Assembly (NCBI GenBank): GCA_020344315.1
Contig: CP070820.1
Location: forward strand, 319,116-383,115
From: Candidatus Bathyarchaeum sp.
GTDB lineage: Archaea > Thermoproteota > Bathyarchaeia > Bathyarchaeales > Bathyarchaeaceae
Length of the DNA: 64,000 nt
Direction of reading: 5' to 3'
Positions 4,370 to 38,004 of this stretch are shown here, piece after piece. The position numbers and the translations under genes are program-made. A model generated the notes under the pieces. The model was given only the letters and a program-made list of their open reading frames with translations. It was not told where the DNA came from and did no database searches. Within the stretch, counting starts at the first letter, position 1. Each line of letters starts with the position of its first letter.

Positions 4370-4428
4370 AAAGTAATTAAACTTCGCCTGCAAAATGACG
4401 ATATACAGCAAGCTCAAGGTTAGCCACC

Positions 4429-11460: not shown

Positions 11461-11593
11461 CAGAAAGAACTCCCAACCCAATTTATTTGAGACCCCCGCA
11501 TCTTTCTATAGCGGAAAGCAACTTTTGATATTCCGGTAAAAGGGGATACTGAAGAACTGAGAGCTTCAAGTGATGCCATTAGAGAGTGGATTC

Positions 11594-12049
11594 TCATCTA
11601 GGATTGTGTAGTTTTCGTCTATAGATGACTATAGCAACTGCAAGCACAGTAAGTACGAGCAGCAGTGGTGTCCATGATGGAAATTCAGGGATGAAATCGG
11701 CTGGAGTGTATCGTTCATTTGCTACAATAGCGTTAGCGCCTGGGCCCCCAATCGCATATATCAAATCATCTACGACTGCAACACCTAACCCATAGCGGTT
11801 TGTTGGCATTAGAGCACCCATAGTCCAAGTGTCTGTTTCTGGATCATAGATTTGATTCAGGTTGAAAGTTGGATAACCACCTAATACGTAGATTCTCGTT
11901 GGAGCTAAGACCCCGCTAGTTACGCCTGCAGCCGCGTTCCCTCCGGGATAAGGCATAGAGGTTCCATTACTCCATGAGTTAGTTTGTGGATTATAAATTT
12001 GAGTTAAAGATTCAGAGAATATGTAGATTTTGTTAAAAGCAGTCTTCAC
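11594..12049 (-). CDS. Kelch-repeat fragment with PEF-CTERM sorting signal (probable N-terminally truncated remnant)
   Basis: About two Kelch blades (IYVLGGY, YDPETDTWT, DDLIYAIGG). C-terminus is IPEFPSW plus a hydrophobic helix plus YRRK. No signal peptide, and no further Kelch coding upstream in any frame. Confidence 0.6.
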   Translation of the reverse strand: MKTAFNKIYIFSESLTQIYNPQTNSWSNGTSMPYPGGNAAAGVTSGVLAPTRIYVLGGYPTFNLNQIYDPETDTWTMGALMPTNRYGLGVAVVDDLIYAIGGPGANAIVANERYTPADFIPEFPSWTPLLLVLTVLAVAIVIYRRKLHNPR

Positions 12050-12203
12050 GCTCTAGAAATTGAAGAATGGAAAGCCATACTGAAGGCAATCATCGAAAAA
12101 AAGAGGTCAGACAAAGAGAGTGTGGATTAAACAAAACCAAAAAAGCATCTACATTTAAGTCCAAATAAGAATATGTAGTGTAAAAAAGTTTGGGGTTTTA
12201 ATC

Positions 12204-13556
12204 GTGGTTCAACTGACGTTTTATGGGGGAGTTAACGAGATTGGTGGAAACAAGATTTTATTAGAAGACAAAGACACGCGTATTTTTTTGGATTTCGGTA
12301 AATCTTTCACTTGTGGTTGCGATTATTTTACAGGTTGGCTCTCACCTAGAAGAATTAATGGTTTAGGAGATTACTTTCATTGTGGATTGTTACCGAAAAT
12401 TAGTGGGATCTATGCTGAAGACCAACTGAAGTTCACAGATCTTCCTTACACTGAACCATCAATTGATGCAATCTTTTTGTCTCATGCTCACTTCGACCAC
12501 ATAGCACATATTGAATTTGTAGATCCAAAAATTCCTGTCTATCTTGGAGAAGGCACCAAGCTTTTTGTGAAATCCCAAGAGGAGACAAGCACTTTTTCAG
12601 ATTATGGGGAGCATCCTTACAAGACATTTCGGACAGGAGATAAAATCCAAATTGGCAATATTGTTGTTGAGCCTATTCATGTTGATCATTCGATTCCTGC
12701 TGCTTATGGCTTTTTGATTCACACTTCTGAAGGCACTTTGGTGTATACTGGAGATCTTCGGCTTCATGGGCCTAGAAAAGATATGACTGAAGAGTTTATT
12801 GATAGAGCATGTGACTCTGATCCTATAGCTATGATTTGTGAAGGCACTAGAATGGTCGAAGTGGAAAGAAGGAAGAACTATTCGGAACAACAAGTTAAGC
12901 AACATAGTGACGAAGTTGTATCTTCAACAGATAAGATGGTTTTCTTTACTCATTACAGTAGAGATATGGATCGTTTTAGAAGCCTTTACTCTGTGGCAAA
13001 GGACAATAGTAGAAGAATTGTGGTCTCCACAAAGACTGCTTATTTGCTAAGTAAGCTTGTTGATGACAAACGACTTGATCTACCTGATCCAGTTAAGGAT
13101 GATGATATTCTTGTGTATTTTAAACGGAAGAAATCTGGAGATTTCGAAGAGAAGGATTACTACCTTTGGGAACGTCCTTTCATAGATAAGATAGTTACTT
13201 TTGAGGACATCCACAAGAAACAAAGTGAATATGTTATGGATTTGGGTTTCTACCAGTTCGCTGAACTCGTCGATATAAAACCGGACTCTGGAAGCCATTT
13301 CATTCATAGTATGAGTGAGCCTTTTAGTGATGAGGATATTGAGGATGAAGTAATGCATAATTGGCTGAAGCTCTTTAACTTGCAGTTTCATCAATTACAT
13401 GCTTCAGGACACATGAATAGACAACAATTAGGAAAACTGATCAGGAAAGTAAACCCGAAAAAACTTTTTCCAATACACACAGAAAACCCTCAATTGTTCA
13501 AGAGTTTGGGTTATGATGTTCAGATAGTTGAGTGTGAACATAATTATAATATTTGA
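12204..13556 (+). CDS. rnj: Archaeal RNase J (beta-CASP metallo-beta-lactamase ribonuclease)
   Basis: 450 aa. N-terminus FYGGVNEIGGNKILLED, HxHxDH motif SHAHFDHI, C-terminal HASGH. Length and layout match archaeal RNase J. Confidence 0.8.
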   Translation: MVQLTFYGGVNEIGGNKILLEDKDTRIFLDFGKSFTCGCDYFTGWLSPRRINGLGDYFHCGLLPKISGIYAEDQLKFTDLPYTEPSIDAIFLSHAHFDHIAHIEFVDPKIPVYLGEGTKLFVKSQEETSTFSDYGEHPYKTFRTGDKIQIGNIVVEPIHVDHSIPAAYGFLIHTSEGTLVYTGDLRLHGPRKDMTEEFIDRACDSDPIAMICEGTRMVEVERRKNYSEQQVKQHSDEVVSSTDKMVFFTHYSRDMDRFRSLYSVAKDNSRRIVVSTKTAYLLSKLVDDKRLDLPDPVKDDDILVYFKRKKSGDFEEKDYYLWERPFIDKIVTFEDIHKKQSEYVMDLGFYQFAELVDIKPDSGSHFIHSMSEPFSDEDIEDEVMHNWLKLFNLQFHQLHASGHMNRQQLGKLIRKVNPKKLFPIHTENPQLFKSLGYDVQIVECEHNYNI

Positions 13557-13828
13557 CAATTGTACGCTCGTGGTCAATACGATTCTCGGGATAGACTCGA
13601 TTAAACAGCTGCATCTAGCGCTTCGGAATAAGATCCGCGCGCGGACTTAGGTTACCCCCATCATCCAGACACACTTAGCTGAACCCCTAGCTTTTTTAGG
13701 TGTTAGCCTTTTTTGTTGAACAATGTAGAAAATATAAAACACCTAAAACTGCTTTGCGCGCATCTAAAATTATAATTAGGAAAATATTCAATAGCAAACA
13801 TGAGAAACCCACTCTAGGGTGATTTAAA

Positions 13829-14998
13829 ATGACCAAAAGCATTCATATTTCAGGTTTTGTCAAACCTGAATTTGAGGCTGTGCGGGAAACATTTGAAGAG
13901 AATTTTGAGTGCCGTGATGAACTTGGCGCCGCTTGTTGCATCTATCACCGGGGAGAAAAAGTTGTCGATTTGTGGGGTGGTGTAAGGAACGAGTCCACTG
14001 GAGAACCTTGGGAAGAAAATACAATGGTTATCATGTACTCGACAACAAAGGGACTGGCTGGTCTGGCCATGGCGCTTGCTAATTCGCAGGGTTTGTTTGA
14101 CTATGACGAGCGTGTCTCAACGTACTGGCCTGAGTTTGCCCAACAGGGAAAAGACAAAATCACCATTCGGGAACTGCTGGCACATCAAGCAGGGCTATAT
14201 GCATTCGATGAAATGGATGATAAGAACCTAATAGCAGACCTTGATCGTCTAGCCGTAGTTTTAGCTAAGCAAAAACCGGCATATGAACCGGGAAGCAAGC
14301 AAGATTATCATGCCCTAACACTTGGATTTTACGAAAATGAAATTATCCGTCGGACTGACCCCCAAGGCCGTAGCATAGGACAATACTTTCAAGAAGAAAT
14401 TGCCTCTCCGCTTGGCCTTGATTTTTACATTCGTCTTCCTGAAGAAATTCCCAACAGCAGGTTGGCTACCACACGACAACCCAAATTTAACGTGCGTTCG
14501 ATGTTCACTCTGCCCTTTACTATCTTTCTCGCTGCAATCAACCCTCGTTCAGCGTTCCGCAAATCATTAGTAGGATCACTGTTTCCACTAGACAAAGAAC
14601 GCATCTACGCTAGAAACTTCGAAGTTCCGTCGGGAGGCGGTGTAGGAACAGCTCGAGCCATTGCCCACGCATACAGCGTCTTTGCAACAGGCGGAAAAGA
14701 GCTTGGACTAAAAGAAAAGACACTCAAGCAGCTCATGGCACCAGCTGTTCCACCATTGAAGGGATTTCCTAAGCATAGTCCGCAATTCTCACTCGGCTTC
14801 TTCAAGCCCAGTCCAGAGAACCCCTTTGGTCATCCGAGTTCCTTTGGTGCTCCAGGAACTGGAGGATCATTCGGATTTGCTGATCCGAAAGCAAAAATTG
14901 GATACGGGTACGTTCTTAATGGTATGGGCACTTACATAACGGATCCAAGAGACATAGCGTTACGTAAGGCAATGTATCGCTCGATTGGTGCTGATTGA
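13829..14998 (+). CDS. Serine hydrolase, beta-lactamase (class C / esterase EstB-like) family
   Basis: 389 aa with SxxK motif YSTTKG near residue 70. The overall pattern is typical of beta-lactamase-related esterases. Confidence 0.8.
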   Translation: MTKSIHISGFVKPEFEAVRETFEENFECRDELGAACCIYHRGEKVVDLWGGVRNESTGEPWEENTMVIMYSTTKGLAGLAMALANSQGLFDYDERVSTYWPEFAQQGKDKITIRELLAHQAGLYAFDEMDDKNLIADLDRLAVVLAKQKPAYEPGSKQDYHALTLGFYENEIIRRTDPQGRSIGQYFQEEIASPLGLDFYIRLPEEIPNSRLATTRQPKFNVRSMFTLPFTIFLAAINPRSAFRKSLVGSLFPLDKERIYARNFEVPSGGGVGTARAIAHAYSVFATGGKELGLKEKTLKQLMAPAVPPLKGFPKHSPQFSLGFFKPSPENPFGHPSSFGAPGTGGSFGFADPKAKIGYGYVLNGMGTYITDPRDIALRKAMYRSIGAD

Positions 14999-15120
14999 TT
15001 GACTTCCTCATAGACTTGTGCTCCAGCTTGTACTCTAGCTTTCAGGATAGCATTCCTAATTTTTTGTCTAAATATTCTGATTAAAACGAGTATTTGAACG
15101 GTGATCTGTCTAGGGTACAT

Positions 15121-15170
15121 TGGTAGCCCGGGGGAGATTCGAACTCCCGTCGGCGGGTCCAAAGCCCGCC
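15121..15170 (-). tRNA. 3' portion (about positions 26-76) of tRNA-Gln(UUG) with encoded CCA; no 5' half adjacent
   Basis: The minus strand reads GGCGGGCTTTGGACCCGCCGACGGGAGTTCGAATCTCCCCCGGGCTACCA. Anticodon stem GCGGG/CCCGC, loop CTTTGGA (anticodon TTG), T arm GGGAG-TTCGAAT-CTCCC, acceptor 3' strand CCGGGCT-A-CCA. No AGCCCGG acceptor 5' strand or D arm was found within about 300 nt upstream. Confidence 0.7.
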
Positions 15171-15446
15171 AACATATCAACTAATAGAGGTATGCACCTG
15201 GAAATTTGGGTGAGAATTCAGCACCATATTAGCAAATTCATGTGACAATGTTTAAAAGCTAGTTTAACATTTATTCTATTGGTATATCTAACTGAAAAAG
15301 ATTAAACTTAAATTGCAGTTATCAGCTTTTTTGTGTTTTTTCACTCCCAGCAGCTAAGTCAGGTCATAAAGTCTTCATCCACTTGTGCGCTCTAATGAGA
15401 CGCCATCAGGTTCTGACTTTTGCGGCAGAATCAGAATTTCCCATAA

Positions 15447-16196
15447 TTAAGACTTTTTGGACTCGAGGAGTTTTCTTCTGCTGTCCTCTCCGGGCTTCAG
15501 AACGTCTTCCACCATTTTGATCTGTCTCTCGTAGAGGTGGCAGTTCTTGCTATGGAAAATGAGTTTGCCCGTTTTGATGCCTAGTTTTCCTCTTCTGTTG
15601 ATCTCTGAAACGAGGGCTTCGTTGAATAGTTGGATTCCAGCTATGTTGGCGGGCAGTCCCGCGTAGGCGTCCCATGACCTGAAGTAACATGTTAAGGTCA
15701 GCTGTTTATCCAATATCTCTGTGTCAATTAGACTCAAACAGGGAGGCTCATGCTTTCTTGCATCTAAACGCTTCTGGATGTCTTCGGGCAGTCGAATCAC
15801 AAAGGTCACTTGTCTATCTCTTTTCTCCTCAACATATCTCTTAACGGCTTCTTCCACCTGATCCACAGGTTTTCTCATCCTGCTTCCGTACGTGTATGTC
15901 TCGTCCTCTATTGCTCCAGACCATAGGTACTTCAGGGCATACCACTGAACATACTTCATGTCGCAGGGGGCCATAAAATCAACTAGGGGACGATTCTCAG
16001 GATGAGCTATCTCGATGCTCAAGTTCAATTTTTTCGTCCTAGAAACTTCAGAGCCATATCCAACCTCGAAGTTGTCTCCTTTGTGCCATATTTCATGCAA
16101 AACCTTGTACCAAGCATCTGGACAATCAAAGGCTTTAATCACAGTATATCTCAACAGGAAATCCCTCAGTCTGCCCCAATAATTACCACACAACAA
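15447..16196 (-). CDS. Thymidylate synthase, archaeal (methanogen-type ThyA-like)
   Basis: 249 aa. Catalytic-Cys region PPCLSLID, then YFRSWDAY.GLP.N, consistent with the divergent archaeal ThyA family. The true start may be GTG 16162. Confidence 0.65.
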   Translation of the reverse strand: MLCGNYWGRLRDFLLRYTVIKAFDCPDAWYKVLHEIWHKGDNFEVGYGSEVSRTKKLNLSIEIAHPENRPLVDFMAPCDMKYVQWYALKYLWSGAIEDETYTYGSRMRKPVDQVEEAVKRYVEEKRDRQVTFVIRLPEDIQKRLDARKHEPPCLSLIDTEILDKQLTLTCYFRSWDAYAGLPANIAGIQLFNEALVSEINRRGKLGIKTGKLIFHSKNCHLYERQIKMVEDVLKPGEDSRRKLLESKKS

Positions 16197-37905: not shown

Positions 37906-38004
37906 ACATTAAAGAAATGTGTATTCTGAATCTATATTTCGAAGTCATAAGATAGTTAAATACCCTCAGCAACCAGTAAGCCAATTACCCATTAGGAGAA
38001 AAGA

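Follow-up and report, generated by a model that had tools for sequence, protein, structure and literature searches.

An orphan 3' portion of tRNA-Gln(UUG) in a Candidatus Bathyarchaeum genome, probably the scar of an integration event

The window analysed here, a 64-kb stretch of DNA, belongs to a Candidatus Bathyarchaeum genome termed G000 (G000:C1:319116-383115), which consists of a single contig of 1.557 Mb with 43.7% G+C. No tRNA was called in this 64-kb window, either by ARAGORN or by the Rfam tRNA model at its gathering threshold. The minus strand at positions 15121-15171 of the window carries an orphan 3' portion of tRNA-Gln(UUG), 51 nt long and equivalent to standard positions 25-76, which includes the anticodon arm (UUG), the variable region, the T arm, the 3' acceptor strand, the discriminator A and an encoded CCA. 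The Rfam model finds a partial match at this place, with 24.5 bits against a cut-off of 29. The fragment is identical in 50 of 51 positions to an intact tRNA-Gln(UUG) gene of the same genome, at G000 c[1379745-1379820] (blastn-short E = 6e-21), and the similarity between both sequences breaks off sharply on either side, with the 3' limit exactly at the CCA. An earlier sequence-only reading of this DNA, which described an orphan 3' portion of tRNA-Gln(UUG) with CCA but without a 5' half, is borne out by this match and by the lack of an acceptor 5' strand and of a D arm upstream; its estimate of where the homology begins, at about position 26, was right within one base (position 25).

The sole mismatch between the fragment and the intact UUG gene lies in the T loop, with A in the fragment and G in the intact gene. 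The same A is found in the tRNA-Gln(UUG) of all relatives examined, as well as in the tRNA-Gln(CUG) gene of G000 itself. In agreement with this, the fragment is identical over its 51 nt to the tRNA-Gln(UUG) of the genomes G014, G012 and G005, and of the more distant G021 and G022, whereas for G026 the identity is 50/50 over the aligned stretch.

Directly 3' of the CCA, on the minus strand at 15083-15120, comparison with relatives revealed a trailer (ATGTACCCTAGACAG...CGTTCAAATACTCG, then a T-run), which we refer to as M-type, and whose pattern, of ~35-38 nt, can be written as ...ACCCWAG.C...GTTCAAA..CTCG followed by the T-run. On the opposite side of the fragment there is an AT-rich spacer (15172-15446), unrelated to a tRNA 5' half and absent here in relatives. 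This spacer had been described as very AT-rich, and with 35.6% G+C it does fall below the 5th percentile of 275-nt windows, a composition that is normal, however, for intergenic DNA. Likewise, the small hairpin AGGTGCATACCT reported just 5' of the fragment is present, but at 15188-15199 rather than at 15191-15202, and its 4-bp stem is trivial.

Within the spacer, at 15241-15335, lies a copy of a dispersed AT-rich, promoter-like repeat of ~95 nt with two TATA-like boxes. Further copies occur at G000:1469117-1469206, at G014 C22:8762-8850 and C7:17897-17986, and at G010 C13:600819-600910; none of these is followed by tRNA-like sequence, and a GCGCGCGC run follows in three of them. One copy each in G000 and G014 is located 10-12 kb from an integrase gene, the integrase in G000 being one that adjoins tRNA-Pro(GGG).

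The next gene upstream of the fragment, 276 nt away and separated from it by the spacer alone, encodes a ThyA-like protein (15447-16196, minus strand). Downstream, and convergent with the fragment, is a gene for a serine hydrolase of the beta-lactamase family (13829-14998, plus strand; PF00144, E = 2.7e-56), found among five relatives searched in G002 only, with 90% identity and in another context. It is preceded by a metallo-beta-lactamase/RMMBL (RNase J-like) gene (12204-13556, plus strand), a divergent extra paralogue with 68% DNA identity to the conserved copy at G000:1415648-1416935, and by a gene stump, namely, an ORF of 151 aa (11594-12049, minus strand) in which Kelch motifs are the only recognisable feature. 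A 133-nt piece at 12025-12157 is 97% identical to DNA located ~235 nt from an integrase homologue on contig C22 of G014, as against 84-92% in those conserved blocks that were compared. This gene content includes neither an integrase nor any other mobile-element gene.

The serine hydrolase gene had also been said to be bracketed by GC palindromes, which did not hold: the palindrome TCCGCGCGCGGA is at 13634-13645, not at 13644-13655, and on one side of the gene only. It forms part of a dispersed repeat of ~130 nt (13631-13760) with copies at G000:504671-504799 and also in G014, G005 and G012, which may be MITE-like. The idea that this repeat and the one at 15241-15335 are a single unit, split by a cassette containing the hydrolase gene and the fragment, was discarded, as the other copies in G000 lie apart, at 505 kb and 1469 kb.

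The truncated 5' junction of the fragment could in principle have been created by a chimeric join at a repeated tRNA sequence, since G000 is a metagenome-assembled genome; the runs that hold the locus are all sediment or marsh metagenomes, and the tRNA-Gln genes of many other organisms pile up on the fragment. However, a contig from run X2, which may be the source sample of the genome, covers 15138-15582 without differences and thus spans the junction, which is therefore genuine rather than a product of this assembly. Other metagenome contigs are 100% identical over the spacer and both flanking genes. Moreover, if sequences had been joined at a repeat, a complete tRNA would be expected on one side of the junction, and none was seen. 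We therefore consider the probability of an assembly artefact to be negligible.

To place the fragment in its genomic context, we relied on the closest relatives, G014 (86% identity) and G012 (84%), with which G000 shares a synteny block made of the ThyA-like, MGS-like and radical-SAM genes. Synteny with both stops at window position 11527 on one side and resumes on the other at 15447, the stop codon of the ThyA-like gene, which is the first gene of the conserved block. The ~3.9-kb stretch in between (11528-15446), with the fragment near its ThyA-proximal edge, is absent here in these relatives, and in both of them position 11527 adjoins position ~60580 of the window. Beyond the ThyA-like stop codon each genome continues differently: G014 with sequence matching G000:230830; G012 with 5.6 kb of novel DNA and then window position 37934; and G003 with window position 4426. 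The short flank available for G005 is also unrelated to the spacer of G000. No tRNA-Gln remnant was detected in the kilobases beyond the ThyA-like gene in G014, G012 or G003, and the fragment is absent at this locus in all relatives examined. Such unrelated neighbours imply that the ThyA-like stop codon is a recurrent synteny breakpoint, and that the fragment sits there specifically in G000. A single inversion relative to G014 or G012 was tried as an explanation of the locus and rejected, as the relatives show several overlapping rearrangements.

The sequence-only reading had offered three origins for the fragment, namely, a split tRNA gene, an exotic intron and an integration scar, of which the last is supported by our results while the former two fail. 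A functional 3' half of a trans-spliced tRNA-Gln, or a 3' exon with an exotic long intron, would fit with an anticodon arm, a T arm and an encoded CCA that are all intact, and with a start near position 25/26, one of the split points known for trans-spliced tRNAs of Caldivirga. In addition, many tRNA genes of G000 are missed by standard tools. We nevertheless regard this origin as very improbable, in view of the following results.

First, G000 contains intact genes for both tRNA-Gln(UUG) and tRNA-Gln(CUG) (ARAGORN; Rfam 59.9 and 59.5 bits), so that the isoacceptor is not otherwise missing; a full-length tRNA-Gln(UUG) elsewhere is what the sequence-only reading itself had named as speaking against a split gene. 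Second, a search of the 1.56-Mb genome for the 26-nt 5' part, tolerating as many as five substitutions, found it only within the two intact Gln genes, and a permissive search (pairing with the acceptor strand CCGGGCU, G:U allowed, plus any D arm) yielded no candidate for an orphan 5' half genome-wide. The latter search returned the two intact Gln genes, a site within tRNA-Asn and the apparent start of another tRNA, and the trailers of these sites pair with the leader of the fragment no better than random genomic sequence (background mean -20.6, sd 5.2 kcal/mol). A same-strand upstream 5' exon, as needed for an intron-containing tRNA, was not found by ARAGORN, by Rfam or by either of the two 5'-half searches. 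Third, we built a promoter position weight matrix (PWM) from the upstream regions of the 34 tRNA genes of G000 (consensus AAAGCTTAAATA), with which no tRNA-type promoter was detected 22-65 nt upstream of the fragment. The best score there was 1.5, which 58% of random 70-mers match, as opposed to at least 2.4 for every one of the 34 tRNA genes (median 8.3, at about -41) and 9.3 for the intact UUG gene. Fourth, the 25-nt leader of the fragment is AT-rich, with 32% G+C, and has no complementary partner.

For comparison, published split tRNAs are recognised by the lack of the isoacceptor from the rest of the genome, by a 5' half that matches and is encoded at another place, by suitably spaced promoters and by a leader rich in G/C (PMC3218864). 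The fragment resembles the split tRNA halves of Nanoarchaeum, Caldivirga and Desulfurococcales in being a stand-alone 3' portion with intact anticodon and T arms, but unlike them it has its isoacceptor present in the genome, and lacks a 5' half, a promoter, a G/C-rich complementary leader and conservation of the locus (PMC3218864). With complete tRNA-Gln genes elsewhere, the fragment is thus ordinary genomic debris rather than a split tRNA and, as judged from its sequence, is without a role in decoding.

The intact UUG gene and the fragment are about 1.05 Mb (1.045 Mb) apart, both on the minus strand and therefore in direct orientation. The flanks of the intact gene look native, and its 5' block is syntenic in all relatives examined. 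Its 3' block, termed B, follows the UUG gene in G000, G005, G031, G010 and G034, and the CUG gene in G014, G008 and G009. These arrangements show that, across the genus, the UUG and CUG genes of different genomes have exchanged their downstream flanks, and that the two Gln genes recombine. In a side comparison of the tRNA-Gln(CUG) locus of G014 (L030, contig C21) with G000:1374782-1379826 and G000:1145450-1146758, its upstream flank was found to be that of the CUG gene of G000, while its downstream block and the type of its anticodon stem are those of the UUG gene, which points to a putative chimeric gene or to a flank exchange between the two Gln loci.

The trailer that accompanies the intact UUG gene of G000 is also of this different, B type. 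The M-type trailer of the fragment is found, in turn, after genuine tRNA-Gln(UUG) genes (G021, G007:C4 and G013:C60), after distal tRNA-3'-end repeats in G026 and after a 19-nt relic in G007:C15. Because this trailer is common to the fragment and to true tRNA-Gln(UUG) genes, the fragment together with its flank resembles a genuine 3' end with its native trailer. More generally, several families of the order share a conserved M-type trailer after tRNA-Gln (the window; L037 from G021; L036 from G026; L038 and L070 from G007; L046; and L047), which may act in termination or processing, contain a downstream promoter or extend an att arm. A search for its motif by a loose regular expression returned noise only.

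Some of these genes are themselves unusual. The tRNA-Gln(UUG) genes of L037:404-502 (G021) and of the provirus L075 (at ~88-184) have an insertion of 20-23 nt after about position 10, that is, at a non-canonical intron position in the D-arm region. A second copy of AGCCCGG lies 13-20 nt upstream of each of them, and one was miscalled and the other missed by ARAGORN.

That tRNA-Gln(UUG) is a target of integration in related genomes is shown by two cases. First, L075, a provirus according to its IMG/VR class, is the sole contig of the viral collection that contains the 31-nt 3' core of the fragment. Here, an intron-containing tRNA-Gln(UUG), 50/51 identical to the fragment, is directly followed by genes for a tyrosine integrase of 456 aa, a DNA methylase and a large terminase. 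Second, the tRNA-Gln(UUG) of G026 has downstream of it genes for a phage portal protein and a DUF2213 protein, as well as four direct repeats of 11-13 nt of the tRNA 3' end, two of which, including the most distal, are followed by the M-type trailer. The region at this tRNA in G026 is a decayed tailed provirus, flanked by the repeats. In addition, orphan relics that end at the tRNA 3' terminus occur in three of 25 genomes of the genus, with lengths of 51 nt in G000, ~40 nt in G015, where the copy is degenerate, and ~19 nt plus the M-type trailer in G007, whose relic also borders a genome-specific island.

The decayed provirus of G026 also contains an ORF of 202 aa similar to RadA/Rad51 (L036:13928-14536; PF08423, E = 7.5e-62), the end of which overlaps one of the tRNA-3'-end repeats, and which may be a truncated or an element-borne recombinase gene.

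A comparable arrangement exists in G000 at another tRNA gene. Within G000:1039100-1046965, an integrase fragment (1039344-1039523) comes directly after tRNA-Ile(GAU), and 24 nt of the tRNA 3' end are repeated at 1044851 and 1046942, that is, 5.7-7.8 kb downstream. The arrangement suggests one or two small integrated elements, which may be of the SSV type, where the integrase gene is partitioned. Other partial matches to the tRNA model in G000 are at 489678-489740 (21.6 bits), just upstream of an integrase-family gene (490052-490519), and at 712543-712600 (31.8 bits).

An element that integrates into a tRNA gene provides the gene with a new 3' part, and the old one is displaced, together with its trailer, to the far end of the element. 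On this basis, we consider it probable that the fragment is a non-functional, attR-type scar of integration at tRNA-Gln(UUG), later parted from its tRNA by rearrangement. A tyrosine-integrase element, either a provirus or a plasmid, would have recombined into the 3' part of the tRNA-Gln(UUG) gene, displacing the original 3' part with its chromosomal trailer as an attR-type repeat; the element would afterwards have been lost or have decayed, and later rearrangements would have carried the scar 1.05 Mb from the intact gene. We infer each of these steps, from the action of an integrase to the relocation of the scar, from the features of the locus and of related genomes.

Three groups of observations would be accounted for by such a scar. 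First, the fragment has an M-type and the intact gene of G000 a B-type trailer, and the T-loop difference goes in the same direction, as an A in the fragment and a G in the intact gene are expected if the intact gene had its 3' part replaced and the fragment is the original; this polarity, suggested by sequence comparison, depends on one nucleotide. Second, the fragment is found in a breakpoint stretch along with the Kelch stump, the divergent extra paralogue and the 133-nt piece that resembles DNA adjacent to an integrase gene, a setting that would suit the remains of an integration. Third, by analogy, the use of tRNA-Gln(UUG) in L075 and G026, the relics in the genus and the parallel provided by tRNA-Ile in G000 all argue for the same type of event.

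The features of known att sites provide a further comparison. In crenarchaea these sites span 29-69 bp, and their usual target is the 3'-distal part of a tRNA gene (PMC6563490, citing She et al. 2002/2004). Like the attL/attR tRNA repeats of archaeal tyrosine recombinases, the fragment is a partial copy, nearly without differences, of the 3'-distal part of a tRNA, ends at the 3' terminus, has a length (51 nt) within the range of att sites, lies where conserved DNA gives way to genome-specific DNA, and corresponds to a tRNA used by related proviruses with an integrase (PMC6563490). Unlike such repeats, it lacks a near partner repeat bounding a discrete element, an integrase within that element and, indeed, any recognisable element, the intact tRNA being 1.045 Mb away with native-looking flanks (PMC6563490).

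A simple history of the scar is opposed by the same distance, by the lack of an integrase near either copy, as none of the seven matches to the integrase family PF00589 in G000 is near 334 kb (the fragment) or 1380 kb (the intact gene), and by the lack of element proteins in the island, where the proteins of the L075 provirus gave no significant match. Nor did the viral and metagenome contigs provide a free element with the site of the fragment as its attP: the exact 49-nt tRNA part of the fragment has no match in viral contigs, and its exact 5' junction has none in metagenome contigs. Without a near partner, an integrase or a provirus remnant, and with an intact gene whose flanks look native, the simple layout of tRNA, element and fragment is not reconstructable.

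In view of these points, a tRNA-Gln gene that was duplicated or translocated and then simply truncated is a real alternative. The fragment would then be a pseudogene made without an integrase, from a second or translocated tRNA-Gln(UUG) that kept its native trailer and lost its 5' part at position 24/25 by ordinary rearrangement or deletion, perhaps involving homologous recombination between two tRNA-Gln genes. This would be in accordance with a heavily rearranged region, in which the neighbour of the ThyA-like stop codon differs in G014, G012 and G003, with the swapping of UUG and CUG downstream flanks, as seen for the B block, and with a site where no integrase or element remnant was found. 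It would not explain, however, why the copy runs from just before the anticodon stem exactly to the CCA, an extent and a length typical of att sites (PMC6563490), nor why the genus has repeated cases of relics, graded in length, that all end at the tRNA 3' terminus. Moreover, proviruses bearing an integrase demonstrably use the same tRNA. Truncation by ordinary rearrangement is thus unlikely, although it deserves serious attention.

A variation on the theme of integration is that the fragment is an attP-like site borne by an element, in which case the island, with its serine hydrolase gene, its metallo-beta-lactamase paralogue and its Kelch stump, would be a decayed element that arrived by another route. 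The variable DNA on the 3' side of the fragment, a layout shared with the relic of G007, would fit with this possibility, as would two pieces of the island (12025-12157 and 15246-15335) that are collinear with part of contig C22 of G014, where there is an island with an integrase. However, the trailer of the fragment is of the chromosomal type seen after genuine tRNA-Gln genes, the other copies of the ~95-nt repeat are not linked to tRNA pieces, and the island is devoid of integrase and other mobile-element genes. An element-borne site is therefore improbable, and an attR-type scar of chromosomal origin continues to be the reading that we prefer.

The position of this probable scar at a synteny breakpoint recalls the situation in Thermococcales, where pairs of complete tRNA genes contain the inversion breakpoints, which are attributed to the integrase of pTN3, an enzyme with activity shown in vitro (PMC5495485). 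As in that case, a tRNA sequence is found here exactly at a synteny breakpoint, in a heavily shuffled lineage in which tRNA-Gln flanks have been exchanged; unlike in Thermococcales, one of the partners here is truncated, and the event is not linked to any enzyme (PMC5495485). By analogy, it is tempting to speculate that the fragment is not inert, either as a putative live secondary att or recombination site or as the source of a tRNA-half-like RNA transcribed from the promoter-like repeat ~85 nt upstream, and, on a broader scale, that tRNA-Gln-centred recombination mediated by a pTN3-like integrase may be a main driver of genome shuffling in the genus. Taken jointly, we find these proposals doubtful.

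It is textbook knowledge that integrating elements leave partial tRNA copies in archaeal and bacterial genomes, and for this reason the fragment matters little by itself: it is a known kind of feature, in a new instance from a Bathyarchaeia genome, and not a new mechanism. Its analysis shows that this lead to split tRNAs in Bathyarchaeia was a false one, and marks tRNA-Gln(UUG) as a hotspot of integration and rearrangement in this lineage, as exemplified by a tailed provirus and by several relics. With regard to disrupted tRNAs, ARAGORN called 34 tRNA genes in G000, many of them with introns, and 31 were at or above the cut-off of the Rfam model. No genes for Met, Phe, Tyr, Cys and Lys tRNAs were called in G000 by either ARAGORN or Rfam, and a dozen or so isoacceptors went undetected in all. 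The corresponding genes are probably multi-intron or otherwise disrupted, and it is these, rather than the fragment, that represent the place to seek split, permuted or truly disrupted tRNAs in G000.
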